From Erysipelothrix larvae (GTDB lineage: Bacteria; Bacillota_I; Bacilli_A; Erysipelotrichales; Erysipelotrichaceae): a DNA stretch of 32,000 nucleotides. Below are positions 6,615 through 25,064 of this stretch, one piece after another. The notes under the pieces were generated by a model, which saw only the letters and a program-made list of their open reading frames with translations, did not search any database and was not told where the DNA came from. Position numbers and translations under genes: made by a program. The stretch covers positions 2,040,001-2,072,000 of the forward strand of contig NZ_CP013213.1 in NCBI RefSeq assembly GCF_001545095.1, in the 5' to 3' direction. Position 1 is the stretch's first letter. Each line of letters opens with the position of its first letter.

Positions 6615-8981
6615 TCACCGATTCTTATAATAGATATAAAGTGAATAGTTGCTTATTAAGGCTATGAAACCATAGACAATTAGTGATGTTAAGAAGGTCC
6701 CATTAAATATCGAACCATTCCCCATTAGTAGACTATGCAATGATAGTGCTTCAAAAGATTGTATCCCAATAAGTATCATAAGTAATGGAAGGAGTAACAC
6801 AACCCCTGTCATAATAAATACAATAACTATAGACGTAAATTTAGAGGATATCCATAGAATAATGCTGGTTGAAAATATTGCTCCAGAGAGTCTTAAAACC
6901 CAAACTAGAAGCAGGTATTGCCACAGTTTTAGATCCAGTACCCAAGCTGGTATGTTACTTATTTTGAAATCACTTGGTAAGATACTTTGGAACGTACTTT
7001 GCCATGCATCCATGGTATATATCGAAGAGAATGTAAAAAGGTCAACAAGTGATACTATGATAACTGCTCCGAATGCAATGAGATAAGCAAGCTTAATCTT
7101 ACTTTTGAAAAGGGGTAAATTACCCTTTTTCGTGATGGTAGCAATCCCATCTGGGTCTTGTTCATAATCAAATGCAATAATGGGTGATAACACGAGTACT
7201 AGTAAGACAATGAGTAGTAATGCATTTCTAAATTCTCGTGTTTCTGTATTAATAGAAAACAATGCTTGGTATCCATTTGGATAGACGAGTTCTTCTGAAT
7301 TATTCGTTATGTAATGGTCATAGAATTGATTGAAAACCGCCTTATCAACTGAATGTGATAGGTATTCATTTATAAAGTCGTAATATGCTTCTTCTGTAAT
7401 CGTGTGATCTTTGTATGCTTTTGCGTTTAGACTCAATTGTTTATTTAAGTTATCATAAAAATCATATTGCGTATCAATCCACAATATCTTCTCTTCATTG
7501 AGTTCTCCACCATGTTCACGATAAACCTCAACAAGTTTTTCATCAAGTGTCTTGATATTGAGTCCTTGATATATTCCGATATAGATATTTCCCAAATACA
7601 GACCGATTACGAGTACCACAAGCCATCCCTTTTGCATAATGAAACCTTTGTAAGACTCAAATCCAAACCGTTTCAATCTTGGTACAATAGTCGCATGAAG
7701 TTTATCAAATCTTAAATTGATCGAAAGTTGTGGTTTTAATTGCGCATTGCGCAAAACGATAATGCAGATTGTTCCAATAATGCATATAATAATTCCCACT
7801 CCATATATAAAATTAATTTTTGATAAGGAAAAACCCAATGTCTCAATTATTGAATATGATTGGAATAGGTCTCTTGCTTGAATAAGCGCATAAACATTTA
7901 GATACTTGAAAGGAACAAGCATCATGGTATCTTGAATGGTGAAGTATAACCCTGCACTGAATGAAAAAATCAAGAGGAAAGAGAATACCGCTTGTATACG
8001 ATTTGGAATAACTTGATAGAGTAATCCAAACAAAAATGACAACGCCAGCATGCCTACAAATTGCCCAGACACCATCCACATAAACCATCGACCCAAAGAC
8101 ATATTAAAAGAACTATAAGCCAAAGATGGAAAAGATTGGATTGGTGCAAGCCAGTTGATAGAACTAAAAATGAGTTGATTTGTTAGGATAAGCAAGGCAT
8201 AGATGGATATAAAGACCCCCAACAAACTCATTGTCCCTGCAATAAGTTTTGCGATGGTTGTTCTTGTTCTTCCTTTGTTGGTAATCAATAATAGATCATT
8301 CATCTGTGTTGTATGGTCTATTTCAAAAACAGATAAAAAGATAAATATTCCCACAATTATCAGGATTGGCTCAAGATTTGTACCTAAAAGCACATCAACA
8401 CCCTTATGATTCTCAGATGACAAACTCACTCCCCTTAGGTTCTCAAAATATGCACTTTGTTTACTATAGTAGTCCTTTCTTTGTTCAGAGTAGTTTTTCC
8501 AAAAAGGTTGGTTTTCCATGGCTTCAATGACATTGATCGAATCCTCAACAAACCTTGGAAAGTCTTGAATCATTGTATAATAATCAAAGAGTGCTTGATA
8601 GAGCATTAAAGTCTCATTGATATCAAAATCCCTTACAAATGTTTGATAGTCTTGGATAAAACTTTCTGTCATAAATGCATCATTATAGTATTCTTGACGC
8701 ATACTCTCAGCAATATCAGGAAGTGCTATATAAGTTTCATAATCAATATATAGATTAAGCGTCTCTATTTCATGCGCTATTTCCTGTGTAGCGACATCTA
8801 TTTCCAAAGAATCATAGTTGTCCTTTAATTCCGAATATGCCGAAATATTTACCGAGTCTTTCTCTAAACTTGTCTTTGATATATACATCATTCCTACTGA
8901 AAGAAAGAGCGAAATCAATAAGACTCCCCTAATGAAACGCTGTGACCACAGCTTTTTTAGCTCCTCATATATTAGCATCAT
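6615..8981 (-). CDS. Cassette A: giant ABC-2-type permease, internally duplicated (two TM1 / soluble loop / multi-TM halves)
   Basis: Likely start is MMLIYEELKKLW at 8981. The track ORF extends to 9050, but 8981 gives a 17-nt out-of-frame overlap with the ATPase stop. Each half has one TM, then an acidic/aromatic helical loop (about 170 aa in the first half, about 130 aa in the second), then a cluster of about 5-6 TMs. It pairs with the adjacent ABC ATPase. Confidence 0.8.
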   Translation of the reverse strand: MMLIYEELKKLWSQRFIRGVLLISLFLSVGMMYISKTSLEKDSVNISAYSELKDNYDSLEIDVATQEIAHEIETLNLYIDYETYIALPDIAESMRQEYYNDAFMTESFIQDYQTFVRDFDINETLMLYQALFDYYTMIQDFPRFVEDSINVIEAMENQPFWKNYSEQRKDYYSKQSAYFENLRGVSLSSENHKGVDVLLGTNLEPILIIVGIFIFLSVFEIDHTTQMNDLLLITNKGRTRTTIAKLIAGTMSLLGVFISIYALLILTNQLIFSSINWLAPIQSFPSLAYSSFNMSLGRWFMWMVSGQFVGMLALSFLFGLLYQVIPNRIQAVFSFLLIFSFSAGLYFTIQDTMMLVPFKYLNVYALIQARDLFQSYSIIETLGFSLSKINFIYGVGIIICIIGTICIIVLRNAQLKPQLSINLRFDKLHATIVPRLKRFGFESYKGFIMQKGWLVVLVIGLYLGNIYIGIYQGLNIKTLDEKLVEVYREHGGELNEEKILWIDTQYDFYDNLNKQLSLNAKAYKDHTITEEAYYDFINEYLSHSVDKAVFNQFYDHYITNNSEELVYPNGYQALFSINTETREFRNALLLIVLLVLVLSPIIAFDYEQDPDGIATITKKGNLPLFKSKIKLAYLIAFGAVIIVSLVDLFTFSSIYTMDAWQSTFQSILPSDFKISNIPAWVLDLKLWQYLLLVWVLRLSGAIFSTSIILWISSKFTSIVIVFIMTGVVLLLPLLMILIGIQSFEALSLHSLLMGNGSIFNGTFLTSLIVYGFIALISNYSLYIYYKNR

Positions 8982-9831
8982 AATCCACCATATAGTATAG
9001 ATATGCGTCTTCAAAAGTAGGTGTTTTATCCCCTTGTGCTGTTTCATCAATATAGCGAATCAAATACTTGGATTCGTATTTGTATACTCTTGAAACGCGG
9101 TATTGACTTTGATAATTTGGTAACTCATGGACTTCAATAAACTTTTCTACAACCTTGCCTTTCAATGTCTCTAAAAGTTCAAAGCCTGTACCTTCAAACA
9201 CAATATTCCCTTTATTAAGTAAAATAACTTTGTCTGCAATGGACTCAATATCTTGCATGACATGGGTTGCGATTAATACAATACGATTTTCTGCAATTTC
9301 ACTGATATAATTTCTTAACCGAATCCGTTCAAATGGGTCAAGTCCTGCGGTTGGCTCATCAAGAATGATGATCTTCGGATCACCCAATAAGGATTGCGCA
9401 AACATCAAGCGCTGTCTCATGCCACCTGAATAGGTCTTAATCTTCCGGTTAATACTTTCTTCAAGTCCAACTTGCTTAACCAAGGCATTGACTTGTATTG
9501 TCGCTTCTTGTTTTGAAATTCCCTTTAGGTTCGCCATATAATACATGAAAGCGAGTCCCGAGTAATTACCATAACCTTTTTGATTTTGTGGCATAAGTCC
9601 AATTAAAGAACGATACGATTCCTTTATATCCCAAATATGTTTGTCACCATAAGAAATAACACCTGATGTAGCTTTATCAAGTGTCGCAATGAGCCGAATC
9701 AACGTACTCTTACCAGCACCATTGGGCCCAATTAACCCATATATACCTGGCTTCATGGTAAAAGAAACATCTTTTAGTGCCTGAACTTCTTTAAATTTCT
9801 TTGACACATTTGTTAGATTTAGAAGTTCCAT
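8965..9831 (-). CDS. Cassette A: ABC transporter ATP-binding protein (ABC-2/DrrA-NatA-like)
   Basis: Walker A GPNGAGKST, signature YSGGMRQR, Walker B IIILDEPTAGLD, H-loop ATHV, and a C-terminal extension of about 60 aa. Confidence 0.9.
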   Translation of the reverse strand: MELLNLTNVSKKFKEVQALKDVSFTMKPGIYGLIGPNGAGKSTLIRLIATLDKATSGVISYGDKHIWDIKESYRSLIGLMPQNQKGYGNYSGLAFMYYMANLKGISKQEATIQVNALVKQVGLEESINRKIKTYSGGMRQRLMFAQSLLGDPKIIILDEPTAGLDPFERIRLRNYISEIAENRIVLIATHVMQDIESIADKVILLNKGNIVFEGTGFELLETLKGKVVEKFIEVHELPNYQSQYRVSRVYKYESKYLIRYIDETAQGDKTPTFEDAYLYYMVDYDANI

Positions 9832-9832
9832 A

Positions 9833-10963
9833 TTAGTGACTCAATAAGCCCCAAGGCCAACTTGCGATAATTTCTGCTTCACCAAATGTATTGTTTTGGA
9901 TTGGTATTCTTATAAACTCCATATAATCTTGCCCATATCGATACGCATAGTAATAATCATCAGCTACTATTTGCACAAACCCAACGAGTCTGAGGTCTTC
10001 TTTTTCTGTATATGTCGACAAGATATTTCCTTCAATATCATAAAGGAAAATATCTTCAGGCTCATCAGCTAAATTCCCAATCACAAAGTAATCTTTTTGC
10101 ATGATAACACTGCCTGTTGCTGGTTTTATGTACACTGTTTCTTTGATACTGGAATTATAGAGATTCATTGAATTGGTTGCTTCAACGTAGGTTACATATT
10201 TATCATTCTCCTTTTGATAAGGGGATAGATTTTCATCGATGAGTGATAACTGATTGTCTTCTGTATTCAACGAAATAATTGCATTACTACTAGTCTTGTC
10301 TTCATCAGTGAATGTTGTGGCATTCAAAAATACTTCATTACCGGAGGCCGATATAAGTCGAAGACCTGTTCCGCCTTCTATTTCCTCAAGACTCCAGTCA
10401 CTCATATCAATACGGTTGACTTTAGTGCCGCCATATGTGTAATAAACATAACCCCTATGATAAATCATAGTGAATGATGATTCATCAGGTTTACGTTCAG
10501 ATAGTACCGCAACTTGCCTCCTGTTGTTACCATCCAAATCCATTTGCATTAGTACTTCTGATATGATTCCAGCATCATTAACACTATCACTAACGTAATA
10601 TAAATAGCCATTATAATAGTTTAGTTGATAGTAATCGGTTTCTGAAAATGAAGTACATGATTCTGGTGACTGAAACGAACATTTCGCATCGCCACTAGCG
10701 TCAACAATTGAAAATTGATTAGTCTTTTTATCAACATAACCCAACATGAAAGTATTATTGATTTGCACAAAATCCGTGTTTAAAATTTCAAAGTAAATAC
10801 CCTCTTCACTTTCGGTGGCAGATCTCATCGCTGCAAAAGAACCACTTAATTGGTTTATATTATAATCATAACCCCAAATTGTGGGGTCAATTGGCTTTTC
10901 TTCTGTTTTACTACACCCAGTAAGCAATAAAAATGCAACGAGCACACTTGTTTTTATTTTCAT
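9833..10963 (-). CDS. Cassette A: lipoprotein with DUF5050-like beta-propeller repeats
   Basis: Probable start is MKIKTSVLVAFLLLTGCSK (ATG 10963, RBS AAGGAGAAG; the track ORF starts 12 codons earlier). Lipobox LLTGC. Repeated aromatic blades are present: YYNGYLYYVSD, HRGYVYYTYG, DIFLYDI, DYYYAYRYG. Confidence 0.8.
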   Translation of the reverse strand: MKIKTSVLVAFLLLTGCSKTEEKPIDPTIWGYDYNINQLSGSFAAMRSATESEEGIYFEILNTDFVQINNTFMLGYVDKKTNQFSIVDASGDAKCSFQSPESCTSFSETDYYQLNYYNGYLYYVSDSVNDAGIISEVLMQMDLDGNNRRQVAVLSERKPDESSFTMIYHRGYVYYTYGGTKVNRIDMSDWSLEEIEGGTGLRLISASGNEVFLNATTFTDEDKTSSNAIISLNTEDNQLSLIDENLSPYQKENDKYVTYVEATNSMNLYNSSIKETVYIKPATGSVIMQKDYFVIGNLADEPEDIFLYDIEGNILSTYTEKEDLRLVGFVQIVADDYYYAYRYGQDYMEFIRIPIQNNTFGEAEIIASWPWGLLSH

Positions 10964-11038
10964 AGAGCACTTCTCCTTATCAAAGTATCTAGTTAACAAG
11001 GGACTATAGCTGTTTTTGTTAGTTAGTTTACAGATTAA

Positions 11039-11395
11039 TTAATAACTTTTATCCAGGACTCGCCTGATATTTCCATAAGAAAATTCACCTTTAACACGTG
11101 CGATTTTATAACCAGAAGTGAATGTTATCATCGTATACTCAAAACCGTCCCCTGCACTATTGTCTGATGCTGTACGCTGTAACATAGTTGAGCCCTTATA
11201 TGCCCATGTGGTTTGAATTACTATCAATGCAGTACTTAGACTATTTGACTTTATGGATGCAGTTGCAGTAGTGTCGTTTACTTTGTTAATCAAATATTCG
11301 TATGTATCAGTTGCAGCACTTACACTTTGTGAAAGAAATAGAAAAACTGTTAACGAAAGAATTGTTCCAAGTAATTTCTTTTTAGTTTTGCTCAT
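11039..11395 (-). CDS. Cassette A: small Sec-secreted beta-rich protein of unknown family (about 91 aa mature)
   Basis: MSKTKKKLLGTILSLTVFLFLSQSVSA|ATDTYEY..., with a predicted AXA cleavage site. The mature part is rich in S/T/G/Y and contains no Cys. It is the first gene of the cassette. The track starts one codon earlier, at a TTG. Confidence 0.7.
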   Translation of the reverse strand: MSKTKKKLLGTILSLTVFLFLSQSVSAATDTYEYLINKVNDTTATASIKSNSLSTALIVIQTTWAYKGSTMLQRTASDNSAGDGFEYTMITFTSGYKIARVKGEFSYGNIRRVLDKSY

Positions 11396-11606
11396 CAAAA
11401 TTGTACCCTTATGCTATGGTTCCTAAAACTATTATACTTAATCTTCCAAAAAATATGTAGTACTATCACGCTATTTTTTAAGTGGTTTGTATTTATTTTA
11501 CTTAATTTCAACAGATTTCACATATCAAGGTGAATAATTAGTAATTTTGCTCTATATTAACGGTATAATAATGAACTAAATATACTTCAATAAATAATAT
11601 ATGTTT

Positions 11607-11700
11607 GAATATTAAACTTTATATGGGGTTTTGACAGCCAACACAATTACTATGGGAGAGACAGTTTCTCTCTAAACTCCCTCTTTAAAGTGTTTGGTTT
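11607..11700 (+). mobile_element. Solo, degenerate copy of the left end of the ISL3-like element found at 17494
   Basis: GAATATTAAACTTTATATGGGGTTTTGAC... at 11607 versus GGATATTAAACTTTACTTGGGGTTTTCAC... at 17494. Similarity continues for about 95 bp (roughly 70% by eye) as far as ...CTTTAAAG.GTTTGG. I found no matching right end nearby. Confidence 0.55.
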
Positions 11701-11993
11701 ATCTTATTTTCAAAGGCATAAATGAAAGAAAAAATGCCGTAGCGAGCTGAGATTCAATCAGCATTTACAAATAAAGTGTGGCACTATTTGCGAAAAAAAT
11801 TTTTAATATTACGATTATCTTTGAAGTGACAATCAACAGTTCAATGGATACATTGGTAAACATTTAAAAGCGTTGAATAAAGCATATTCACACATATTCT
11901 GCTACCTATAAATCCTTACTTTCTAAGAATTCAATTTCTCCATAAATCCATTATTCTCGTTTCAATCAATATTGAACAAAATATTTTAAACTG

Positions 11994-12836
11994 TCAGCCT
12001 AACAAATCAATGTACACATCATCAAGGGTTGTCTGGACTTGTCTCTCATGTAAAAGTTTTGAAATAAAGCGAATCTTTAAACCGTTTGATGTAGCCATTG
12101 CGCTCACAAACTTCGCAGAATCATCCTCATTTTTGATTGACTCAAAGGATTCATACGATTCAAAAACATTTGTATCATTAATCAGTGCTTCTTGATTCTT
12201 TATCGACAGAATTTGTCCATCTTTCATCACAATAATCTGGTCTGCAATCATTTCAACATCCGAGATAACATGCGTTGCAAGAATAACAATGCGATCTGTC
12301 GCTACTTCCGCGATAACCTTTCTTAAATTTAACCGTTGAACGGGGTCAAGGCCTGCTGTCGGCTCATCCAATAATAATATCTTGGGATCATTAAGCAGTG
12401 CTTGGGCAATGAGGACCCGCTGCTTCATACCACCTGATAATTGATCCAAAGATTTATGTTTAATCGTTTCTAAATCAGTGCGTTTCATGATGGTGTTTAC
12501 GTTCTCTGAAATCACGTTTCGCTTAATCCCTTTCATTGTACTCATATAAATCAAAAAAGACTCCACTGTGAGATTAGGGATTAGCGATTGTTGTTGTGGC
12601 ATATAGCCAATCATCTTTCGATAGTCATCACCCAATTGATGAATGCTTTTTCCATGATATAAAACGTCCCCTTCATAGCCCAAGGTTGTGCTTAAAATAT
12701 TAATAAGGGTCGATTTCCCAGCACCATTGTGTCCCAATAAAGCATACACACCCTCATCTAACGATAAACTAATCTTATTCAGCGCTATGGTTTCTCCATA
12801 GCGTTTTGTTATGTTTTTAAGCTCAAGAATACTCAT
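11994..12836 (-). CDS. Cassette B: ABC transporter ATP-binding protein, paralog of 8965-9831
   Basis: Walker A GHNGAGKST, signature LSGGMKQR, Walker B ILLLDEPTAGLD, H-loop ATHV. It aligns along its full length with the cassette A ATPase (roughly 40-45% identity by eye). Its start overlaps the permease stop by 4 nt. Confidence 0.9.
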   Translation of the reverse strand: MSILELKNITKRYGETIALNKISLSLDEGVYALLGHNGAGKSTLINILSTTLGYEGDVLYHGKSIHQLGDDYRKMIGYMPQQQSLIPNLTVESFLIYMSTMKGIKRNVISENVNTIMKRTDLETIKHKSLDQLSGGMKQRVLIAQALLNDPKILLLDEPTAGLDPVQRLNLRKVIAEVATDRIVILATHVISDVEMIADQIIVMKDGQILSIKNQEALINDTNVFESYESFESIKNEDDSAKFVSAMATSNGLKIRFISKLLHERQVQTTLDDVYIDLLG

Positions 12837-14905
12837 GATATTAACCCTCTTTTCACATTCATACCAATACCACCAATGACCAAACTCATATAACCTACCG
12901 CAACCACAGGATGTTCTAATATAGCCGTTGTAAGCACCATAAGTGGTGAGTATTCAGGGAAGAGTGTAAACAACCCCATCACCACAATAACAACAAATAT
13001 CATGCCAAATAATGCCTTTAATCCGCTTGTTTGTCGGGCAAGTCGATAACTACTCAAAACAATCAATCCATACACCAAGGCCCTAATTAACAGTGTACAC
13101 ACCATGTACACTGCAAGTGAAACATCCAAGGACAGGTCAGTGTCAAGAATTAGACTCATTGGATAGTTCACAGTAAACAAATTATAGTATTTTAAGATCT
13201 TCGCAATATATATTCCATAAACACCAATACAGAGCACCCCACCAATCCCCAACAACAACTGGAGGTCGATCTTCTTCTTTTGTTTTCGACCTAAAAGAGT
13301 ACTATCAAAAAGTGCATCAATCTTTGATGTCTTCGTTGGATTCACAAACATAAACACAAGACTCATCAGTGCTAAAGAAAGGGTTATAAAATGAATCTGC
13401 ATGCTAAACAAGGACTCTCTACCAAAAAGCTGTTCGTACCCTTGTATATTTGAATAGTAGGCCTCCCCATTTATTAGTACTTGTTCGATTTCATCGCGTA
13501 TCATGACAAGGGTACTGAGGTTGTTTGCTTTCTCGATGAGTTCACTATTATTGGTTTCATCACAATCCATTGTATTATCAATACAGGCATTGAGTTTGTC
13601 GCGCGCTTCTTGAGCGTCAAGGATGCGCACGTTCAAAGCTTCCAAAACATCCGCATCAACAATCCCCAGATACTCAGCACGCATAGCATCCACGTTTGCT
13701 TGTTCTGCATCTTCTAAGATGGTATAGCTCATATAGCGATACCCATTGTATCCAATTAAGATTACACAGATTAAAAATGCTTTATAAAGGATTCCCATTT
13801 GGAAGAATTCTTGAAGGGCAAGTGATTTAAACCTAAAGGAAAGTTTAAGGTCAAACTGCTTAAAGCCAATTCGATTGATATTTCGATACATTCCCCAAGA
13901 TAAAATGCTAACACAAACAGTAAGAACACACAGTGCAACAATTTGCAGTGTAGCAAGTTGAAACCCTAGTCCCAAAACAATCGAAATATTAAAGCTTGGC
14001 ATTGATCCAATAAGATAAGCATACACATTAATATATTTGAGAACACTGTAACCCGATGTAATTGAGATAAAGCTATGCATTAAGTACTGAACTAATGTCA
14101 TCAAAATAAATACAAACAATGCCAGTGCATCATTTCTAAAAATGTGAATAAATATGATTAGAATGGAACCAATGAAAAGCATACTCAGAATACCAAGACT
14201 TGAAATCATAATGAGATAAGACAAACAATTTAGATAATAAGGGAACCGGTTGAATCCTGAAATAAATTGAATCGGAACATATAATGACAACCCCATTAAC
14301 TTAAGTGTACCCACTGTAATAAGAAGCATACCCACTCTAAACAAAACAACACTAACTAATAATGCCAGTATCTTAGAAATATATAGGTGCTTCAACGATG
14401 TATGCGTACTCTCAAAAAGACGCAAAATCTTTATTTGAACATCCTGATAGAAAAGCGCTTGTACACACATAATTACAAAAATAAATGACAGGATTGAAAA
14501 AATAGGAGAGCGCAATACAACCGATGGAACATAGGTATTTTCCACATTCAATTCGAGTGTGTTCAATGTTTGATAATATTGAATTTCCTTCTTAAACCTC
14601 ACTAAATTATCTTTTGAATTAAAAAGCGATGACTGTATTTTCTTCTGATTGTTTTCAATGATTTCGTTATTATATTGCGTAAAGTTTTGAATCGTCTCAA
14701 TTTGATTTTTAAGATATGAACTACTGAGTGCTTCAGTGGAAAGATTCCCTTGAAGATACTGATTCCGTTGTGTTATATAACTTTGGTTTTCATCACTATA
14801 AAATGTACCCACCAAAAAAACCAGGAGTACCAGCATCAGTATCATGACCCCTGGAAGAATACCACGATAAGATTTAAGACGCTTTAGCTCTTGATTTAAC
14901 ATCAT
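12833..14905 (-). CDS. Cassette B: giant internally duplicated ABC-2-type permease, paralog of 6615-8981
   Basis: 690 aa. The plan is MMLNQELKRLKSYRG + TM, a loop of about 95 aa, a TM cluster, then a second TM, a helical acidic loop of about 120 aa and a second TM cluster. The N-terminal motif (ELK+L) and overall plan match cassette A. Confidence 0.8.
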   Translation of the reverse strand: MMLNQELKRLKSYRGILPGVMILMLVLLVFLVGTFYSDENQSYITQRNQYLQGNLSTEALSSSYLKNQIETIQNFTQYNNEIIENNQKKIQSSLFNSKDNLVRFKKEIQYYQTLNTLELNVENTYVPSVVLRSPIFSILSFIFVIMCVQALFYQDVQIKILRLFESTHTSLKHLYISKILALLVSVVLFRVGMLLITVGTLKLMGLSLYVPIQFISGFNRFPYYLNCLSYLIMISSLGILSMLFIGSILIIFIHIFRNDALALFVFILMTLVQYLMHSFISITSGYSVLKYINVYAYLIGSMPSFNISIVLGLGFQLATLQIVALCVLTVCVSILSWGMYRNINRIGFKQFDLKLSFRFKSLALQEFFQMGILYKAFLICVILIGYNGYRYMSYTILEDAEQANVDAMRAEYLGIVDADVLEALNVRILDAQEARDKLNACIDNTMDCDETNNSELIEKANNLSTLVMIRDEIEQVLINGEAYYSNIQGYEQLFGRESLFSMQIHFITLSLALMSLVFMFVNPTKTSKIDALFDSTLLGRKQKKKIDLQLLLGIGGVLCIGVYGIYIAKILKYYNLFTVNYPMSLILDTDLSLDVSLAVYMVCTLLIRALVYGLIVLSSYRLARQTSGLKALFGMIFVVIVVMGLFTLFPEYSPLMVLTTAILEHPVVAVGYMSLVIGGIGMNVKRGLIS

Positions 14906-14910: not shown

Positions 14911-16035
14911 CTAATTATCAAGTGCGTTGAGATAAGAAGAGGTTGCGATCTTAGTCCACTCACCTGTTTTATAGTTTACTGTATAATATCCCAAGCCATC
15001 ATTCTTGTCATTTGCGACAACAACCAGCGTGTCTTTAAACACACCGATGATTCCAGACACTTCAACCTTACTGCCGTTTAGGTCCAAAGAATTCGAAGGG
15101 ACAAATGACTCACTTGCCTCCACTTCATAGACAAGTGTTCCATCATAATCATACACTTGAAATTTCAACGGAGATTCTGCACTTGTAGCATAAATATACT
15201 GATCATCAATATATTCCATCACTGTATGTTCAAAAGTGGTTCTAACATCACCCGCTTCATTCACAACATGTGCTAATATTTTATCGGCTTGGATTTCATA
15301 ATAAATAAAATTGGAATCATAAGAACTTGCTAAAAAATAGTCTGGAGCCGATATTACATTTTCCAATGAATAATCATCAAAGGAAAAAGCATACAATGTA
15401 CTAACATTCGTTGATTGATTATACATATTAAGATATAAACCATCTTGTGAAGGAACATAACGAAGGAAACGTTGTCCTTCAGGTTCGATAATTTGTGTTT
15501 TCTCCTTCGAATTTAGGTTTACCACAAATACTTCCTGGGTAAAAGTATCAACATAAAATAGGTGACCATAGGTAATAAACATCTTATCAGGGACCGTGTC
15601 AAAAGTATAAACAACTTCTTTATTTAACCCTTCAGAATCAAGGCGATTAAGCATTAAGCCATTTTCCCCTTCAATCGTTCCATAGTATGAAATATAATAG
15701 AGCGACCCACCATAGCATTGAAAGTATTCCCCATCCATGATATCAAAATACTTCTCATACTCTAGCTCATAATCCTGAGAAACACTGACGACTTCATCAT
15801 CGATATAGTTCAAATCCGCTAATTTTAAAGACTCTTGCATCGCATCATCGTACACATAAAGTGTTCCAGAATCAATGTAATAAATTGCGTCATCTGTTGC
15901 TGAAATGCTAATTTTTGAAATATTAGTATTCATCCCAGTAAACATCTGATTTGCAGGAATGCTCTCGTCAATTTTAGTGGATGTTTGCGTACATCCAGCC
16001 AACAATAAAAGTCCAATCAACAAACCTTTCTTCAT
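14911..16035 (-). CDS. Cassette B: lipoprotein with DUF5050-like beta-propeller repeats, paralog of 9833-10963
   Basis: Lipobox LLLAGC. Blade motifs DAIYYIDSGTLYVYD, CYGGSLYYISYYG, YGHLFYVD, NFIYYEI, QYIYATS. The core YxxxYxG(Y/S)LYY(V/I)S ... L(D/M)xxG is shared with the cassette A lipoprotein. Confidence 0.8.
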   Translation of the reverse strand: MKKGLLIGLLLLAGCTQTSTKIDESIPANQMFTGMNTNISKISISATDDAIYYIDSGTLYVYDDAMQESLKLADLNYIDDEVVSVSQDYELEYEKYFDIMDGEYFQCYGGSLYYISYYGTIEGENGLMLNRLDSEGLNKEVVYTFDTVPDKMFITYGHLFYVDTFTQEVFVVNLNSKEKTQIIEPEGQRFLRYVPSQDGLYLNMYNQSTNVSTLYAFSFDDYSLENVISAPDYFLASSYDSNFIYYEIQADKILAHVVNEAGDVRTTFEHTVMEYIDDQYIYATSAESPLKFQVYDYDGTLVYEVEASESFVPSNSLDLNGSKVEVSGIIGVFKDTLVVVANDKNDGLGYYTVNYKTGEWTKIATSSYLNALDN

Positions 16036-16249
16036 ATATTCTTCTTCTCCCTCTTCCGTGGCTTACCAAGACTAATAAATAATATTGTGTTTTAATTTTC
16101 TTTCATCAGTCTTAATAACTTTTACATTCAAGACTAGTAAATTTGATTTTACCTGTAAAAAATACGGCAACTAATCAAGCTTAATACGCTTTTGTGCACA
16201 TCACTAGTGGAGCGGATTCCCTAGTGATATTTTTTACAACAAAAAGAAT

Positions 16250-16654
16250 TTATTGACCGGGTGCTGTAACAGTTCCTGAACCGAGCGTGCTCAAAGTTTT
16301 ACCCTGATAAGTCACAGTTCCTCTTGAAGAAGCACTAGAAATAGCGTAATTCTTAAATTGACAATAAACTCTAACATATGCTCCACCCATACCACTGGAA
16401 CTGCCTGACGAATCGAATGATTGATACCCTATAGTCTCAGTAATATACGTCGTTATTTGACCGTTATACTTTGTATCATTAGCAATTGACCCATCAACTG
16501 ATTTTCTATCACTGACCATTGAAACTCTTACGGTCATATAAGAATCAGTCTTTGACAATGCTGATATGTTTGTTGAAAACAAAATAAGTGTAAGTCCAAG
16601 CAATAAAATCGCAGTAAATATTTTCCTTCCATTATTTTTTGTAGCTCTAATCAT
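16250..16654 (-). CDS. Cassette B: small Sec-secreted beta-rich protein of unknown family (about 102 aa mature)
   Basis: MIRATKNNGRKIFTAILLLGLTLILFSTNISA|LSKTDSY... is a signal peptide. The mature part is S/T/G/Y-rich with a single Cys. It shares with the cassette A protein an N-terminal TD(T/S)Y, a Ser/Gly-rich stretch before an aromatic strand, and a C-terminal G.(F/V).Y.G segment. Confidence 0.7.
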   Translation of the reverse strand: MIRATKNNGRKIFTAILLLGLTLILFSTNISALSKTDSYMTVRVSMVSDRKSVDGSIANDTKYNGQITTYITETIGYQSFDSSGSSSGMGGAYVRVYCQFKNYAISSASSRGTVTYQGKTLSTLGSGTVTAPGQ

Positions 16655-16806
16655 AGTTAGTCCCCTTGTTTATATCTTCCGCTCTAATTATATTTTATCA
16701 TGACAACCGAAAATGTATACCCTTTCATTTATTGTTATTTTTATTTTTATTGCAATCACAAATCTTGTGGGATGTTACATTTTTAACATAGGTTTTTCTA
16801 CTTGCA

Positions 16807-17417
16807 TCAATTAACTTTAGAAAAAGTATTCATCATCAGGGTAACCATTCTTCTTACTGCCTCAGCTGGGTCTTCGATGACAATCAATTTCTTGTTTTCT
16901 TTACGATATCCATGTGGTGCTTGGGGTGATGCATAATTCCCCTCCAAAAATAAGCGTGTTATTCTTGCTTCAGAACATTTCTTTATCTTCTTTAATTCAT
17001 ACCCTCTGAATGCTAATTTGATTTTATATTCGTTCACACCAGAATCGGTACGATAAACACATGTAGATAAAACTCACAATTGTAAGCTTTCAGATACTTA
17101 ATCCAGAAACTATTGTATTCATTCTCACGTCCAATTCTCTCACTATCAGTTGCCATAACAAGATTCACATTACCTTTCTTTATATCTGATAGAAGTCTTT
17201 GAAAATTAGGGCGGTCCATAGTCGTTCCACTTTCACCATCATCCACATAAAATCTTACATTGTGAACACCTCCTATTCCACTATTTGTGATCACATTTTG
17301 AAGTACATCAAATTGATGTCTTACACTATAACCATGTTTGGCTTGTTCATCAGCGCTGACACGAACATATACTCCTATTTTGCGCTCTCTTAATTCTTGA
17401 ATTCTCGAAAAAAAATG
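16807..17417 (-). pseudogene. Large serine recombinase (resolvase/invertase N-domain); lacks a start codon, is frameshifted and is 3'-truncated
   Basis: The open frame from 17417 reads ...RIQELRERKIGVYVRVSADEQAKHGYSVRHQFDVLQNVITNSGIGGVHNVRFYVDDGESGTTMDRPNFQRLLSDIKKGNVNLVMATDSERIGR. It contains the catalytic YxRVSxxxQ box. There is no ATG/GTG/TTG upstream of that box. The frame breaks near 17037, and the second piece (...PHGYRKENKKLIVIEDPAEAVRRM...) stops after 76 aa. Confidence 0.75.
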
Positions 17418-17778: not shown

Positions 17779-18249
17779 ATGATAACAGTTTTCTCAAACA
17801 CATTCAATAATAAACAGTTTTCTCAAAAGGAATATTACAAATTTCTCAATTCAATTAATCCAAAAACAATACCTTGTCCGTGCTGTTCAAAAACAGATAC
17901 ACTGATTCGTTATGGATACTATCCGAAAACCATAATTACTGGGCGATTAACCATTGTCGTAGAAATCGCACGTTTCTTTTGTAATCAATGTAAGAGAACT
18001 CATGCAATAATACCAAGTAACTTACTTCCCTATTTTCAACTGTCTGTACCCACAATTGAAATAATATTAACCCATGAACTTGATAGCACGCTTTTAACTG
18101 ATATTGATGAATCAACATATATTCGGATAAAAATACGTTTTAACGATTATGAATCGGTGAGACATTTAAGTTATTTGGAACGATTGAATTACTTCATATT
18201 ATCCACAAAACGGAATATCTATCATTCCGCCATTACTTCACCAACATGA
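17779..18249 (+). CDS. IS-associated Zn-ribbon protein (resembles the DUF6431 proteins found with ISL3-like transposases)
   Basis: 156 aa with two CxxC pairs (CPCCSK ... CNQCKR) and a THAIIPSNLLPYFQ motif. It lies immediately upstream of the transposase inside the IS. RBS AAAGGAG. Confidence 0.6.
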   Translation: MITVFSNTFNNKQFSQKEYYKFLNSINPKTIPCPCCSKTDTLIRYGYYPKTIITGRLTIVVEIARFFCNQCKRTHAIIPSNLLPYFQLSVPTIEIILTHELDSTLLTDIDESTYIRIKIRFNDYESVRHLSYLERLNYFILSTKRNIYHSAITSPT

Positions 18250-18382
18250 GAAAAATAGTTTTAACTCCTCAGATTGAATATAATGAAGATGGTTATTTAA
18301 ATAACAGACAATCATTTTTATATTTAGGAGCAAGATACATAATGAAACCTTATCAAAATAGTCAAAGAGAGGCAGGGTTTCT

Positions 18383-19858
18383 ATGAACGCTAATGCCACT
18401 CTTTTAAGTAACGAAAAAATTCTTGAATTATTTAACTTAGAACACCATCAAGTCCAGAAGATTGATATCAAAGGTCAAAGTGACGCATTGAATGTGTACA
18501 TTACGCTTCAGGTAGAGGAACAAACATGCCCAATTTGTGAAAGCAAAACATCCACAATCAAAGATTATTCTGAAAAGAAGCTTCTCCACTCACTGGTAAC
18601 ACATATACCCTGTTACATTCGTTACCGTGCACGACGTTATAAATGCACAACGTGTAATAAATGCTTTTTTGAACACAATCCATTTGCGTATCGAAATATG
18701 AAGATTACTCAGCTGACCGTATATAATGTCCTGAATGATCTTAAATCGCCACATGAAACGTTTACCACAGTTGCCAATAGATATCGGTTATCTCCCACTA
18801 CAGTATCATCTATTTTCGATTCCCACGTTTCTGTCTCCAGACAAAAACTACCCGCTTATCTGCTTATTGATGAATGTTATGCGTACCACAGTGATCGCAG
18901 TGATTATGTATGCGTTCTTATTGATGCAATGACAAAGAATATCGTAGATATATTACCGTCCCGTAAGAAACAAGACTTAGTCGCGTATTTTAGCCAAATC
19001 CCCCTTGAAGAACGCAAAGGAGTCTTAGGTATTGGAATCGACATGTGGTATAGCTATAGAGTCGTCGCAAAACAATTCCTTCCAAACGCGTTTATCAGTG
19101 TTGATCGTTTTCATGTTTATAGTGATTTAATGAAACGTATCGACTCTATTAGGGTAGACACTATGAAGAAACTAAAACCTCCTAAGAACTGGAAGCAAAC
19201 AGAAGATAAAGTCAAAAGACAAGAATATTATAAGCGTGACCAGCAATACTATCTGCTTAAAAAGTTCAACTGGTTACTCTATAAAAACCCCAAAGCAACA
19301 ACCACAGTTAAAGATAAGAAATACAATATATTTGATCCAAATGTACCGAAACAACGCAATAAGAAATTGGGAAAGTTTCTAAACCTTTACGACATAATAG
19401 ACCTAATTCTTCAAACGAGCAATGGCCTTGAAGATGCATATAACATGAAGTTCTTACTCGATCAATTCTTCAATGAATCAAAAGCTGAGAATGCACACGA
19501 GAATCTGAACACACTCATCAGAGTGATGGCTCAGAGTAGAGTTGCATCAATCGTTGATTTTAGCCGAACTTTAGGAAAGTGGAAAAATGAAATTGTCGCA
19601 ACTTTCAATAAAGTAGAAAAATGCACAAAGGTCACAAATAAGAAAACAGGAGAAACCCATTATGAAGTTTCCATAACACACATAAACAGTGCGTTGATTG
19701 AGAATCGAAATCGCATAATCAAGCAAATAAAAAACAATGCAAGTGGCTATCGTAATTGGGAGCGGTTTAGGAATCGTGTGTTGTATGTGCTTAATGAAGA
19801 CGCAACATATCGAATTAACCCAATAATTAAAACAACCTATGACAAAGGACTCTCTTAA
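18383..19858 (+). CDS. ISL3 family transposase
   Basis: 491 aa. N-terminal Zn finger (CPICESK...CTTCNKC). DDE core segments LIDECYAYH..., GIDMWYSY and SVDRFHV. C-terminal SALIENRNRIIKQIKNNASGYRNWERFRNRVLY is typical of ISL3/IS204/IS1001-type enzymes. Confidence 0.9.
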   Translation: MNANATLLSNEKILELFNLEHHQVQKIDIKGQSDALNVYITLQVEEQTCPICESKTSTIKDYSEKKLLHSLVTHIPCYIRYRARRYKCTTCNKCFFEHNPFAYRNMKITQLTVYNVLNDLKSPHETFTTVANRYRLSPTTVSSIFDSHVSVSRQKLPAYLLIDECYAYHSDRSDYVCVLIDAMTKNIVDILPSRKKQDLVAYFSQIPLEERKGVLGIGIDMWYSYRVVAKQFLPNAFISVDRFHVYSDLMKRIDSIRVDTMKKLKPPKNWKQTEDKVKRQEYYKRDQQYYLLKKFNWLLYKNPKATTTVKDKKYNIFDPNVPKQRNKKLGKFLNLYDIIDLILQTSNGLEDAYNMKFLLDQFFNESKAENAHENLNTLIRVMAQSRVASIVDFSRTLGKWKNEIVATFNKVEKCTKVTNKKTGETHYEVSITHINSALIENRNRIIKQIKNNASGYRNWERFRNRVLYVLNEDATYRINPIIKTTYDKGLS

Positions 19859-20464: not shown

Positions 20465-21148
20465 TCAAATATCACCCCCCTTTACCAAGGTTCCTTCATA
20501 CATCAGATCTTTTAGAGTTACAAATTTTGTTTTAAATCCATCCACGTGATTTTGGGTTCTTTTATTGTGTAATTCTGCATTCAGTTCTGCTTCAATGATA
20601 CCTAAAATATTCAAAGCAATAATGCGTGCAAGAATTTTACATTTGTAAACATCAGGACAAGTTGTATTGAATCGCTCAGCTTCTAATTCGGACTTATAAT
20701 ATTTAAAATGTGTTTCAATTTTCCAACGATCTGAATATAGTTCAGCAACTTCTTTATGCGAGAACTCGGCTTGACTCAAATTTGTGAAATAGATATGGTG
20801 TGTTTCGTCTTTTTTACTGGAATTTTTCAATTCATATTTCACCACACGTATTCTAATGCGAGGATTCGATTCAAATGAATCACGCACTTCTTCGTGTTTA
20901 AGTCTTCTTTGCCACTGTTTATTGACTGTAATATCAATCCATCCATCTTTCTCAATTTTAGCTACTTCCTCTTTGAAAAAGTTCGTTTTCCCTCGTATAC
21001 AATACTTGCATCCATTCAGTTCAAGGAATCTGAACAGTTCAACACTACCATAATACCGATCCGTAATATAAATTGATTTGTGGTTGCGAATCAAATCAAT
21101 TGACTTATACAGGTTTTCATATCCTAGCTTGATTTCTGATGTGTTTCG
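20465..21148 (-). pseudogene. C-terminal half of the IS4/IS1634-like transposase (interrupted gene)
   Basis: ...RNTSEIKLGYENLYKSIDLIRNHKSIYITDRYYGS (second D) ... ELYSDRWKIETHFKYYKSEL (YREK/E region). The reading frame continues upstream to the IS21 left end at 21148/21149. Confidence 0.8.
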
Positions 21149-21266
21149 TGCGCTGTATTTGTTAATCTAAAAGTGGGCCAATTCTCAATTGAAAACTGGT
21201 CCACTATTTTTATAACTTCAGAAGTGTGTGATAATGCTTTTGGAGGTGAAAGAGGTGATATCACAA

Positions 21267-22715
21267 ATGAGCAAATATTCAATTATCACATTAAAAAAGA
21301 AAGGATGGTCCAACAGAAAGATTGCCCTTGAATTGGGTATAGACCGAAAGACGGTCGCACGGTATCTTCAGGAATATAATAAATGTCAAATACAATTGAT
21401 TGATAATCATGATTTATCAGACGAAAGAAAAGTAGAAGTCATTGATCAAATTGTTGGGGACCGTCACTATGATGCAAGCAAACGAGGTAAGCGCAAGTTA
21501 ACGCAAGAAATTCAAGCACGCATCATTGAAATTATGGATTCAGAAAAAGATAAAGATATGTTACTAGGAAGACATCATAAGCAAAAGTTAACAGTCACTC
21601 AAATATTTGAAATTATCAAAAGCGAGGGACATGATATTGGTCAGACAACCATACGAAATTTTGTGCATGAAATTCAAGCTTCACGAGAAACATTTATTCG
21701 ACAAGATTATCGATATGGTGAGCGGTTAGAGTTTGACTTTGGAGAAGTAAAGCTTTTAATTAATGGTGAACTAAGAACATATTATCTCGCTGTTTTCTCA
21801 TCACCAGCAAGCGGATATCGGTATGCATATTTATATCCAAACCAACGCAAACAAGTATTCATAGATGCACATGTTCGCTTCTTTGAGCATTCTAAAGGCT
21901 CTTGGGGTGAAGTTGTATATGACAATATGAGAAACGTCGTGAAGCGCTTTATAACGCCTTATGAAAAAGAAATTAATGATGATTGCCTCAAACTGGCACT
22001 CTATTATAATTTTGAAATTAACCTGACTAATATACGAAGTGGTCATGAAAAAGGAAGTGTAGAAAACAGTGTTAAGGTAATTCGAAATCGTGTATTCGCA
22101 AAGGACTATAAGTTTGAAACATTTGAAGAGGCATGTGTTCATCTTGAACAGACTCTTGATGAAATCAATATAAAGAGTTCAATCGAAGATGAAAAGAAAG
22201 AACTTCAACCTTACAGAATTCCTTATGAATTCGCTGATATCGAAGTATATAGTGTTGACAAGTATGGTTGTATACACGTTGAAAATAATTTTTATTCAGT
22301 CCCAGACTATCTCCAACACAAAAGAGTTACGGTCAAAAACACCGTAAATTCGATACGCATCTATTCAAATCACACATTTGTGTACGAACATAAAAAGATA
22401 GATGGTCACCATCAATATCAGCTTGTGTTGGACCACTATCTGAATACAATGATGACTAAGCCGGGATCCGTAAAGAATTCACTTGTCCTAAAACAACATC
22501 CTGAGCTTTATAACATCTACCATAATCATTATAAAACAAGAACTAAAGAGTTCATAGAAATTCTTCAAGAAAACAGGAATGAAACGTATAAAACGCTCAA
22601 AGATGCTTTAAAGTATCGGTTGGTTTCAAATACAATTGACACCGTTGAGTATGATGACAGCATACAAGAACAATCACGTAAACAACTTAAGAAAATAAGC
22701 CAATTAATGCATTAG
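21267..22715 (+). CDS. istA: IS21 family transposase IstA
   Basis: N-terminal HTH (GWSNRKIALELGIDRKTVARYL). DDE core (LEFDFGE..., VYDNMRNVV, GHEKGSVEN). The start is chosen at MSKYSIITL, which has an AGAGGTG RBS; the track ORF begins 13 codons earlier, at 21228. Confidence 0.9.
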   Translation: MSKYSIITLKKKGWSNRKIALELGIDRKTVARYLQEYNKCQIQLIDNHDLSDERKVEVIDQIVGDRHYDASKRGKRKLTQEIQARIIEIMDSEKDKDMLLGRHHKQKLTVTQIFEIIKSEGHDIGQTTIRNFVHEIQASRETFIRQDYRYGERLEFDFGEVKLLINGELRTYYLAVFSSPASGYRYAYLYPNQRKQVFIDAHVRFFEHSKGSWGEVVYDNMRNVVKRFITPYEKEINDDCLKLALYYNFEINLTNIRSGHEKGSVENSVKVIRNRVFAKDYKFETFEEACVHLEQTLDEINIKSSIEDEKKELQPYRIPYEFADIEVYSVDKYGCIHVENNFYSVPDYLQHKRVTVKNTVNSIRIYSNHTFVYEHKKIDGHHQYQLVLDHYLNTMMTKPGSVKNSLVLKQHPELYNIYHNHYKTRTKEFIEILQENRNETYKTLKDALKYRLVSNTIDTVEYDDSIQEQSRKQLKKISQLMH

Positions 22716-22726
22716 GAGAAAAATTA

Positions 22727-23473
22727 ATGGAAACAATTGAACAATTGTCAAAAGAATTAAAACTTTCATTCATAAAAACACACTATGAAGCAGCAATACA
22801 GGAAGCGAAACACAAAGGATTGGATTTTCAAGAATTTCTTAACGAACTGCTTTATTGCGAACGAAACAATCGTCGTGACAACGGAATAAAACAACGCATT
22901 CGTGCTGCTCGATTTCCTCAAAACAAGACATTGGAGGATTTTACGACTGTAAAATTTAATTCAGAATTAAAACGAAAGTTTAAAGAACTGGAAACATTGA
23001 ACTTTATAGAAAATAAAGAAAACATTATCTTAATGAGTAATCCTGGAATGGGAAAAACACATTATGCGACCGCACTTGGAATCAAAGCTTGTCTAGAAAA
23101 TAAAAAAGTGCTATTTATCAGCGTTCCTAATCTAATTATAGAGTTAAAAGAAGCTATGTCAAAAAATCAAATTACGCAATACAAAAAGAAGTTTGAAAAA
23201 TTTGATCTAGTAATTCTTGATGAACTCGGCTATGTGTCATTTGATAAAGAAGGAAGTGAAATTCTATTCAATCTAATCTCAAATAGAATAACAGTGGGCT
23301 CTATGATTATTACAACAAATTTAATGTTTGATAGATGGGAAGAAATATTCAAAGATCCCATTCTAACAACTGCTCTAGTCGACCGCTTAACCTATAAATC
23401 ACATCTATTAAATATGAGTGGAGAGAGTTATCGTGTTGAAGAAACAATTGCTTGGCTAAAGAGCAAAGAATGA
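22727..23473 (+). CDS. istB: IS21 helper ATPase IstB
   Basis: Walker A NPGMGKTH, Walker B LVILDELGY, and an IstB-type C-terminus (TNLMFDRWEEIF.D..L..A.VDRL). Confidence 0.9.
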   Translation: METIEQLSKELKLSFIKTHYEAAIQEAKHKGLDFQEFLNELLYCERNNRRDNGIKQRIRAARFPQNKTLEDFTTVKFNSELKRKFKELETLNFIENKENIILMSNPGMGKTHYATALGIKACLENKKVLFISVPNLIIELKEAMSKNQITQYKKKFEKFDLVILDELGYVSFDKEGSEILFNLISNRITVGSMIITTNLMFDRWEEIFKDPILTTALVDRLTYKSHLLNMSGESYRVEETIAWLKSKE

Positions 23474-23540
23474 CAAACGGTAGTGGACCAGTTTTCAATT
23501 GAGATTTGGACCATTATTCAGTTGACAAATACATGCGCCA

Positions 23541-24263
23541 ATGGTGGTACTTAAGAAAAAATCGTTGGTTATGTCAAACAATCCCCCCATTTTAGTCGTT
23601 ACACGTTTTACATCGGTTTCGCATCGAACTTTTTGGTTCTTATGGAAGCCAAATGTACTAATTGATTCTTTCGATAAGGGAGCTTCTATAACAGTCCCAT
23701 CTTCTGCAAGAATTATGTATCCTTTATAAGTCTTAACAAGATTTGATTTATAAAAAATACGAGTGAAAGATTGCATAATTGAATCAAACACTTTTGGATT
23801 AATTTTACGAAGTGCTTTAGAAAGTGCTTGCTTTGAAACGATACTCTTTATGCAGTCAACACGCGAGTAAAAACGGATCAATTCTTGATTGATTGTTTTC
23901 CCACTTCTAAAAATGAGAAACATCAATAATCGGAAAAATGTCAGTTCCCTAGTACGCGTGAAATAAGCTGGTGACTTACGGGCGATGTCAACAAGAGAAG
24001 ATTGATTCAATGATTGTCTGAAAGTGTGAATGAAATTAGTAATCGTAGAATTCTTAACTACTTGGTTCGTCATCATAAACTAACCTCGGCTTCTTCTTAG
24101 CAAAAGCTGCTTTTAGATATGGGACGCTTTCCGAAGGGACTTTACCAAAGTTAATCAGTACTTTATGCTTTGATACACCCAAATGATCACGAGATGATTC
24201 AACAAGGGCACAATAATATGAATCATCATTCCCTTTATTATTCTTAACTGCTCTAACAAACAT
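23541..24263 (-). pseudogene. N-terminal part of the IS4/IS1634-like transposase (also frameshifted near 24054-24076)
   Basis: MFVRAVKNNKGNDDSYYCALVESSRDHLGVSKHKVLINFGK is the typical IS1634-family N-terminus. A second frame carries ...YKGYIILAEDGTVIEAP (first D) ...FDITNDFFLSTTI, and then reads into the IS21 right IR. Confidence 0.75.
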
Positions 24264-24465: not shown

Positions 24466-24541
24466 TGGTGGCTCCTCTCAGAATCGAACTGAGGACACAC
24501 GGAGCTTCAATCCGTTGCTCTACCAACTGAGCTAAAGAGCC
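24466..24541 (-). tRNA. tRNA-Phe (GAA)
   Basis: GGCTCTTTAGCTCAGTTGGTAGAGCAACGGATTGAAGCTCCGTGTGTCCTCAGTTCGATTCTGAGAGGAGCCACCA. It folds as a cloverleaf with anticodon loop TTGAAGC and an encoded CCA. Confidence 0.95.
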
Positions 24542-24542
24542 A

Positions 24543-24619
<77 letters not shown>

Positions 24620-24671
24620 ATATATATTTACTGCGCTTATACAGTATAACAAACTTTGAAATAAAAATCAA

Positions 24672-24760
24672 TGGCGGAGGAGGTGGGATTCGAACCCACG
24701 CATGCTCTCACATCTGCTGGTTTTCAAGACCAGTCCCTTCAGCCACTTGGGTACTCCTCC
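24672..24760 (-). tRNA. tRNA-Ser (UGA)
   Basis: GGAGGAGTACCCAAGTGGCTGAAGGGACTGGTCTTGAAAACCAG... with a long variable arm and an encoded CCA. Confidence 0.95.
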
Positions 24761-24774
24761 AGTTGAATTTTATT

Positions 24775-25055: not shown

Positions 25056-25064
25056 ATAAAAAAA

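Follow-up and report, generated by a model that had tools for sequence, protein, structure and literature searches.

Two tandem gene cassettes that resemble each other in their remaining parts are each headed by a small gene for a secreted protein: are the two leader proteins related as well, and what would they do? The question is raised by a locus of Erysipelothrix larvae (assembly GCF_001545095.1, contig NZ_CP013213.1) that lies in a stretch of 32,000 nucleotides (nt), positions 2,040,001 to 2,072,000, hereafter called the window. Two cassettes of four genes each, B and A, lie in tandem on the minus strand of the window; both are made up of a leader gene, a lipoprotein gene and the genes for the ATPase and the permease of an ATP-binding cassette (ABC) transporter. 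A first-pass annotation had taken the cassette B leader for an orphan, possibly a remote homologue of the cassette A leader and, in that case, a fast-diverging component of the locus. The results reported here place the B leader in a small, conserved family that heads a mobile module. The reading that I favour, at a probability of roughly 40%, is that the leader is a Sec-dependent bacteriocin-like protein from which the producer would be protected by the lipoprotein and the ABC exporter.

The cassette B leader gene and its product

The leader gene and the signals attached to it are the following.

16250..16654, minus strand: cassette B leader gene, an open reading frame (ORF) for a precursor of 134 amino acids (aa) giving a predicted secreted protein of 102 aa, 10.8 kDa and isoelectric point (pI) 9.1
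16559..16654, minus strand: part coding for the signal peptide, residues 1-32, with predicted cleavage after NISA (read from the sequence)
16660..16666, minus strand: Shine-Dalgarno (SD) sequence AAGGGGA, 5 nt 5' of the ATG (read from the sequence)
16692..16719, minus strand: promoter-like site, TATACA, 16-nt spacer, TAAAAT, with TG before the second hexamer (consensus scan only)

The coordinates, the end of the signal peptide and the mature length of 102 aa given by the first-pass annotation agree with the ORF and with a fresh reading of the sequence. The n-region of the signal peptide is positively charged (R3, K6, R10, K11), hydropathy places the hydrophobic core, of about 16 residues, at residues 11-31, and the c-region reads STNISA/LSK, with a small residue at position -1. 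I or V at -3 together with A at -1 is common to the B leader, both of its relatives described below and the A leader. All four leaders known (A, B, C and D) have a canonical signal peptide, and their pI ranges from 8.9 to 9.5. The SD sequence, the signal peptide and the existence of relatives bear out the view that this is the leader gene of a Sec-exported mini-protein; the gene is accordingly real, with a small, basic product that is predicted to be exported by the Sec pathway. S, T, G and Y are abundant in the mature protein, which is probably beta-rich. In the consensus scan, promoter-like sites around the B leader were no commoner than in shuffled sequence, and the regions upstream of the four leader genes have no regulatory motif in common.

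A conserved leader family at the head of a module

Relatives of the leader were sought by an exhaustive phmmer (HMMER) search with the mature B sequence against 1.84 billion representative proteins. This search returned two true relatives, P0004 (120 aa, expectation value (E) 2e-14) and P0005 (90 aa, E 2e-12), the second of which is a damaged copy of P0007 (128 aa), a protein whose signal peptide is intact. The term orphan is therefore apt insofar as no curated family takes in the B leader, and inapt insofar as two related lineages exist. A word-indexed search of 5.8 billion clusters with the B leader returned the protein itself alone, and such searches with the A leader and with permease B returned only their own or near-identical (>=99%) entries. 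Both leaders, both lipoproteins and both permeases of the window were without a match in Pfam, NCBIfam, PHROGs, PADLOC or PDB sequences.

The B leader is 44% identical to the leaders of two further cassettes, C and D (BLASTP E 1e-27 and 1e-25), and the family alignment contains three invariant motifs, NDT.Y.G, IGYQ.F and G..SG.GGAYV.V. This alignment identifies the Ser/Gly stretch and the aromatic strand that follows it as the conserved core of the B family. A homologous lipoprotein gene stands directly after the leader in the sequences L003, L004 and L085-L092. The full module (leader, lipoprotein of 372 aa, ATPase of 285 aa, permease of 671 aa) is present in L085 and L087 and constitutes cassette C; L003, L004 and L088-L092 show at least leader and lipoprotein, and in cassette D (L003) the end of an ISL3 transposase cuts the module after the lipoprotein. 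No additional cassettes came to light when genomes, metagenomes and viral sequences were scanned with alignments of the lipoprotein, the permease and the leader, and tblastn and megablast searches of PLSDB plasmids with lipoprotein B, cassette B DNA, L085 and permease C as queries returned nothing relevant. The B, C and D leaders form a small, previously undescribed family of three lineages that is always encoded by the first gene of the module; with the A leader, there are four leader lineages in all among ~15 billion proteins.

How strongly the leader is conserved can be judged against its partners. Within the B-type clade, the leader (44-52% identity) and the ATPase (51%) are well ahead of the lipoprotein (28-30%) and the permease (28%). 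The ratio of non-synonymous to synonymous substitution rates (dN/dS, Nei-Gojobori) of the leader is 0.18-0.33 in this family, values that are rough because synonymous sites are saturated (dS ~2). The P0007 protein is identical on 14 contigs, and the 10 places listed for it belong to 10 different samples. In a second, near-identical strain (L001/L002), which differs from the window at 42 positions elsewhere in the locus, the B leader has 0 substitutions and the A leader has 1 (E86A). Between the same strains, ATPase A shows 4 synonymous and 0 non-synonymous changes; the permease changes (window 6615-14905 compared with L002) are mostly non-synonymous, 5 to 1 in permease B and 4 to 3 in permease A, although these counts are low and errors in the Logan assembly are possible. 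The B leader is under purifying selection. The proposal that the secreted component is a fast-diverging, diversifying factor, for which a dN/dS estimate had been suggested as a check, is contradicted within the B-type clade by the conservation of the leader, by its dN/dS and by the identical copies.

The same data bear on the suspicion that the ORF at 16250-16654 is non-functional, a chance reading frame or a decaying remnant in an island rich in insertion sequences (IS). Such a suspicion could draw on a neighbourhood full of pseudogenised transposase and resolvase fragments, and on the lack of any curated family match. A protein identity of 44-52% over three lineages whose synonymous sites are saturated, an intact SD sequence, start codon and signal peptide, and a sequence that is unchanged in a strain differing at 42 other positions of the locus make this explanation exceedingly improbable.

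Relationship between cassettes A and B

The other genes of the two cassettes are as follows.

14911..16035, minus strand: cassette B lipoprotein, 374 aa, lipobox LLAGC
12833..14905, minus strand: cassette B permease, 690 aa, assigned from hydropathy and identity to the cassette C permease
11994..12836, minus strand: cassette B ABC ATPase, 280 aa, start overlapping the permease stop by 4 nt; PF00005, E 1e-32
11039..11395, minus strand: cassette A leader, 118 aa, predicted cleavage after SVSA, mature part 91 aa, pI 8.9
9833..10963, minus strand: cassette A lipoprotein, 376 aa from MKIK, lipobox LLTGC
8965..9831, minus strand: cassette A ABC ATPase, 288 aa
6615..8981, minus strand: cassette A permease, 788 aa from MMLIYEELKKL

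The ATPases of A and B are 44% identical (E 2e-64) and the permeases are colinear at 22-25% identity (E 5e-5 to 2e-4). Lipoproteins A and B gave no direct match with each other; they are linked through the lipoprotein of cassette D, which lipoprotein A matches with E 7e-11 (and that of cassette C with E 0.002), lipoprotein B being 30% identical to the lipoproteins behind the related leaders in L003 and L085. By these comparisons, cassettes A and B are paralogous in three of their four genes, as the first-pass annotation had supposed.

The proposal that the fourth pair, the leaders, are remote homologues fared differently. BLASTP of leader A against leader B gave E 0.82, in an alignment that consists mostly of signal peptide. 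The mature parts align at the level of shuffled sequences (z 0.09-0.13, p ~0.43; Smith-Waterman z 0.09, global z -0.32), and z for B and P0004 against A stayed at ~0 with several matrices and gap costs. A hidden Markov model (HMM) of the mature B family scored A at 3.1 bits, compared with 1.9 ± 1.6 for shuffles (p 0.17). In profile-profile comparison, hhalign of the two small leader profiles gave a probability of 1% and aligned the signal peptides only, and with the mature parts alone A against B scored 11.4, compared with 11.1 ± 2.5 for shuffles (p 0.40). Remote homology is thus not shown, and the lack of a significant profile-profile score is an outcome that the first-pass annotation had itself named as refuting its proposal. 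With tblastn at E up to 50 nothing was found, neither a relic of a B-type leader near cassette A nor one of an A-type leader near cassette C. A single comparison stands out: P0005 and A align colinearly with z 2.3-3.2 (uncorrected p 0.01-0.03), sharing NDT, S.G.G..Y and AR.KG....G...R.L and taking in the blocks noticed in the first-pass annotation, but this hint (z ~3) is lost after correction for 18 comparisons. All these tests are low-powered, involving as they do proteins of ~95 aa and profiles of 2-4 sequences, which leaves homology unproven rather than refuted. AlphaFold2 single-sequence models of the B and A leaders have a mean predicted local distance difference test (pLDDT) score of 44.9 and 44.3, with the mature parts below 50 and the signal helix alone confident.

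The likenesses on which the proposal of remote homology had been built are of unequal weight. The Ser/Gly stretches followed by an aromatic strand, SSGSSSGMGG-AYVRVYCQF in B and SDNSAGDG-FEYTMITF in A, are present as described. The mature proteins do carry TD(T/S)Y near the start, in A as mature residues 2-5 and in B as residues 4-7, but only the Y is kept among B and its relatives (KTDSY, NKNAY, VSNSY); the idea that TD[ST]Y is a common processing or recognition site is rejected on the same ground. Of the late element G.(F/V).Y.G, B has a faithful version, GTVTYQG, whereas in A (GEFSYG) the last G comes one residue earlier. The similar composition of the two leaders is real and unusual. S, T, G, Y and N together make up 45-55% of the leaders, as against 30% of the other proteins of the window, and the composition deviations of A and B are correlated with r=0.76, a value that 0 of 107 control windows of 100 aa from other proteins of the window reach when compared with B. 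The correlation is 0.75-0.80 between A and the members of the B family and 0.76-0.88 within that family. This likeness points to the same structural style, that of a secreted beta-rich protein, and is not evidence of common descent.

How much should be made of the negative alignments? The match between lipoproteins A and D amounts to 49 bits over 331 residues; since 95 aa at this bit density would give ~14 bits, failure to detect a leader match is by itself uninformative, and it is what one would expect if the leader had diverged as far as the lipoprotein. Relative rates lead to another expectation. The identity between A and B is 37-44% for the ATPase and ~22% for the lipoprotein, and scaling from the B-type clade predicts an identity of ~35-40% between leaders A and B (own calculation), which would easily be detected. 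Because this predicted identity is absent, either the A leader lineage has evolved several-fold faster or the leader gene has been replaced. The A leader would thus be a paralogue too far diverged to be recognised, or else a replacement that is not homologous. Descent of both leaders from one ancestral cassette, with the secreted part diverging fastest, agrees with the paralogy of the three other genes, with the shared position and type of Sec signal, with the similar mature size (91 aa, compared with 97-102 aa) and pI (~9), with a composition match as close as that inside the B family, and with the uncorrected P0005-A alignment; set against it are the uniformly negative BLASTP, shuffling, HMM, hhalign and tblastn results, the expectation from relative rates, the loss of TD[ST]Y in B's own family and the failure of z ~3 to withstand 18 tests. 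On balance I give common descent slightly less than an even chance.

Gene order, spacers and partner proteins

From the lipoprotein gene on, the genes of a cassette abut or overlap, which suggests translational coupling; the leader gene stands apart. The spacer between leader and lipoprotein gene is 214 bp long in cassette B, compared with 60-75 bp in A, C and D, and contains one marked element.

16198..16230, minus strand: stable stem-loop in the leader-lipoprotein spacer of cassette B, fold energy -23.2 kcal/mol, z -4.2

In the sense direction this hairpin is not followed by a U-tract. Since the T-run is found on the plus strand only, the element looks like a terminator of antisense transcription and not of the leader transcript; it could be a processing, stability or partial-termination element. 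The consensus scan also gave a promoter-like site 5' of the cassette B lipoprotein gene. Cassette B has the order permease-ATPase (11994-14905) and cassette A the order ATPase-permease (6615-9831). Because cassette C (L085 8256-12698) combines a B-type leader with the A-type order, the B order is probably a derived rearrangement. Between cassette B and the A leader lies an AT-rich gap of 595 bp (11399-11993, ~30% GC) with no ORF and no Rfam match, and a TATAAT box is found ~30 nt 5' of the A leader start.

The lipoboxes found directly 5' of the transporter genes are LLAGC, LLTGC, LITSC and LVGC. A profile of the lipoprotein family weakly matches the YWTD propeller blades of LRP4 (E 0.007, search of PDB sequences), and the cassette B lipoprotein is probably a beta-propeller; apart from this weak lead, profiles of leader, lipoprotein and permease had no significant match among PDB sequences. 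Hydropathy gives the permeases ~12 transmembrane (TM) segments in two halves, each of which starts with a TM segment and a loop of 90-160 residues. The B permease is 28% identical to that of cassette C (E 7e-55), and the M..ELK+L start of the permeases is a motif common in ABC-2 permeases. The best NCBIfam models for the ATPases are of the GldA and DrrA types, joined by a lantibiotic-protection model, all of them below their cut-offs. Permease B has counterparts on a 16,378-bp plasmid of Erysipelothrix larvae, three fragments (169, 422 and 428 aa) with over 90% identity to it, which suggests that the plasmid has a second, broken copy of cassette B.

A possible bacteriocin-like leader or transporter subunit

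The reading of the leader as a Sec-dependent bacteriocin-like protein, to which the figure of roughly 40% given above applies, is based on a combination of features: the first gene encodes a small, basic, Sec-exported protein, those for a lipoprotein and an ABC exporter come next, the module lies on mobile DNA and is patchily distributed, and the window holds two divergent tandem copies. The leader protein would act outside the cell as an effector of the Sec-dependent bacteriocin type, and the producer would be spared by the lipoprotein, which would bind it at the membrane surface, and by the ABC exporter, which would expel it. As evidence for immunity-like partners I count the lipobox lipoproteins, the ATPases, whose best models are those of ABC-2 exporters (DrrA, GldA) and which also match the lantibiotic-protection model, and the abutting or overlapping genes from the lipoprotein on. 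A variant of the cassette C leader in L004 also counts towards this reading. Here a frameshifting deletion of 58 bp removes the hydrophobic core of the signal peptide (L004 579-640, compared with L085 8256-8340), and the start of the lipoprotein gene is intact. The deletion is either a toxin loss or an assembly artefact; the pattern, with the leader signal peptide lost and the lipoprotein start kept, resembles that of toxin-loss variants of bacteriocin loci.

The functionally closest systems would be lactococcin 972 and LanI/LanFEG immunity, by analogy, as tests of family membership failed for both. As in the lactococcin 972 system (LclA), the first gene is that of a small beta-rich protein with a Sec signal, genes for a large multi-TM protein and for an ABC ATPase come after it, the genes lie on mobile DNA, and there are no genes for modification or dedicated export. 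The module differs in its additional lipoprotein and in its two-half, ABC-2-like permease of ~12 TM segments. Mature lactococcin 972 has 66 aa, the module leader ~100 aa. Lactococcin_972/TIGR01653 had no match: B and A hit no Pfam or NCBIfam family at all at E up to 1, and no relevant family was hit by B, P0004 or P0005 at E up to 10 or by P0007 at E up to 1. For the permeases NCBIfam gave no match either, the bacteriocin-associated membrane-protein model included, and the B ATPase scores 119.8 bits against a TIGR03608 cut-off of 254.85, the A ATPase no higher.

In the LanI and LanFEG systems (NisI/NisFEG, SpaI/SpaFEG), a lipoprotein and an ABC exporter are likewise encoded beside the gene for a secreted peptide or protein. 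The ATPases score 142.9 and 139.1 bits with the lantibiotic-protection model TIGR03740, below its cut-off of 309.75, and no lantibiotic precursor or modification genes were found among the family-scanned ORFs of the window or in L085. LanE and LanG are separate proteins, whereas the module has a single fused permease, and the module lipoprotein, probably a propeller, matches no known family model, that of LanI included. A third likeness is with YxeA (DUF1093), a small secreted protein encoded beside BceAB-type transporters in Firmicutes (B. subtilis yxdLM-yxeA). The YxeA gene is the last of its operon, and the leader gene is the first of the module; Pfam and NCBIfam scans of the module found no DUF1093 match, no FtsX-type permease and no two-component system.

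Several observations weigh against a bacteriocin-like leader. Searches of Pfam, NCBIfam, PDB, PADLOC and PHROGs gave no sequence or structural link to a known bacteriocin, toxin or immunity protein, and the window cassettes contain no regulator or processing gene. The leader is more conserved than the lipoprotein and the permease, which is unusual for a toxin engaged in an arms race; a protein that is structurally part of the transporter machinery would be just as good a fit. In L004 the deletion may be an error of assembly, and all of the inferences rest on as few as four leader sequences.

The conservation of the leader favours the view that it is an extracellular accessory subunit or ligand-handling partner (presenting a substrate, sensing or docking) of a lipoprotein-ABC machine whose task is to export or resist another compound. 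In the B-type clade the leader matches the ATPase in conservation and surpasses lipoprotein and permease, selection on it is purifying, its gene always lies directly 5' of the lipoprotein gene, and the two large extracytoplasmic loops of the permease could dock partners. An obligate structural subunit would not be expected to be unrecognisable in cassette A, where the three other parts are homologous. Moreover, the 214-bp separation of the B leader, with its stable hairpin and the promoter-like site before the lipoprotein gene, suggests a separate dosage, and ABC-2 exporters are not known to have an analogous subunit. A transporter subunit is the main rival reading, at a probability only somewhat below that of the bacteriocin-like one. 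Were it correct, the module would represent a new type of ABC-2 exporter, one with two extracellular partners of its own.

A further possibility arises from the search with the mature B leader, in which phmmer also hit P0006, an actinobacterial protein of 1731 aa, in 10 repeats that Pfam names CHB_HEX_C_1/Fn3_assoc. The B-family leader might thus be a free-standing relative of the CHB_HEX_C_1 or Fn3-associated beta-sandwich of surface glycosidases and adhesins, and serve as a carbohydrate- or surface-binding module. The E value of 7e-8 for the whole protein is inflated because near-identical repeats are summed; single P0006 repeats are matched by BLASTP with E 3e-5 to 1e-3, and hhalign of the B family against the repeats gives a probability of 51%. 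The likeness is local, N.T.Y.G...T....T[IV].Y[QR][ST]F...G over 34 columns, which amounts to roughly a third of the protein, and S, T and G are abundant in both sequences. PF13290 and PF13287 match none of B, P0004 and P0005 at E up to 10, nor do they match P0007, the DGS.P and D..GN motifs that define the domain are not kept in the B family, and hhalign of the A leader with the P0006 repeats gave nothing. A binding module of this descent is improbable, and the P0006 match is only a lead towards an Ig/Fn3-like sandwich.

To return to the bacteriocin-like reading, an extended form of it holds that the module is a new class of mobile Sec-dependent protein-bacteriocin locus, with immunity conferred by a propeller lipoprotein, an ATPase and a fused 12-TM permease, and that the two tandem versions carry toxins that are unrelated or diverged beyond recognition, toxins being swapped on a conserved immunity chassis. 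In this extended form the proposal is speculative, and I regard it as doubtful. If the leaders are antimicrobial, they would be bacteriocins of a new family, unmodified proteins exported by Sec, whose immunity system of lipoprotein and ABC exporter is unusual, and the window would offer a natural case of paralogous immunity chassis with different toxins side by side. The source would be a little-studied Erysipelotrichaceae lineage (insect gut, metagenomes) together with conjugative elements. In view of its great rarity, the family has limited general importance until a function is demonstrated.

Mobile context and distribution

The cassettes lie in an island rich in IS elements, with IS605, resolvase, ISL3, IS4 and IS21 remnants, beside an array of nine tRNA genes.

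24466-25346, minus strand: tRNA array of nine genes (Phe, Met x3, Ser, Pro, Arg, Leu, Cys) bordering the island

Mobile debris is found at 5732-6213, 16807-17294, 17779-19858, 20465-21094, 21228-23473 and 23495-24076, the last being an ORF outside the family scan. It comprises fragments of IS605 OrfB (TnpB), a split resolvase, DUF6431 and ISL3 transposase, a DDE_Tnp_1 (IS4-type) fragment and an IS21 IstA/IstB pair. The element that carries cassette C is conjugative and also encodes RepA_N, ParA, TraG and a thioester-domain adhesin. The module is spread by mobile DNA. Around cassette C (L085 12716-13275; L087 6187-7160) there are, on the 3' side, genes for an 82-aa lipoprotein and for the secreted thioester-domain (TED) adhesin and, on the 5' side, a gene for a 57-aa HTH_23 protein, a possible regulator of the cassette.

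E. larvae is an isolate from the larval gut of a rhinoceros beetle. The PotA protein of the window is 82% identical to PotA of Erysipelothrix metagenome-assembled genomes. The whole two-cassette locus recurs at 99.6% identity in the reads SRR6161627, which come from a rhinoceros beetle sample (PMC10485680).

At the other end of the window, an operon that is unrelated to the cassettes (1461-3179, minus strand) encodes a camelysin/TasA-like secreted protein (PF12389) and, after it, one that has an LPXTG-like LANTG motif. Its last gene, which has no Pfam hit, probably encodes, as read from the sequence, a SipW-type signal peptidase.

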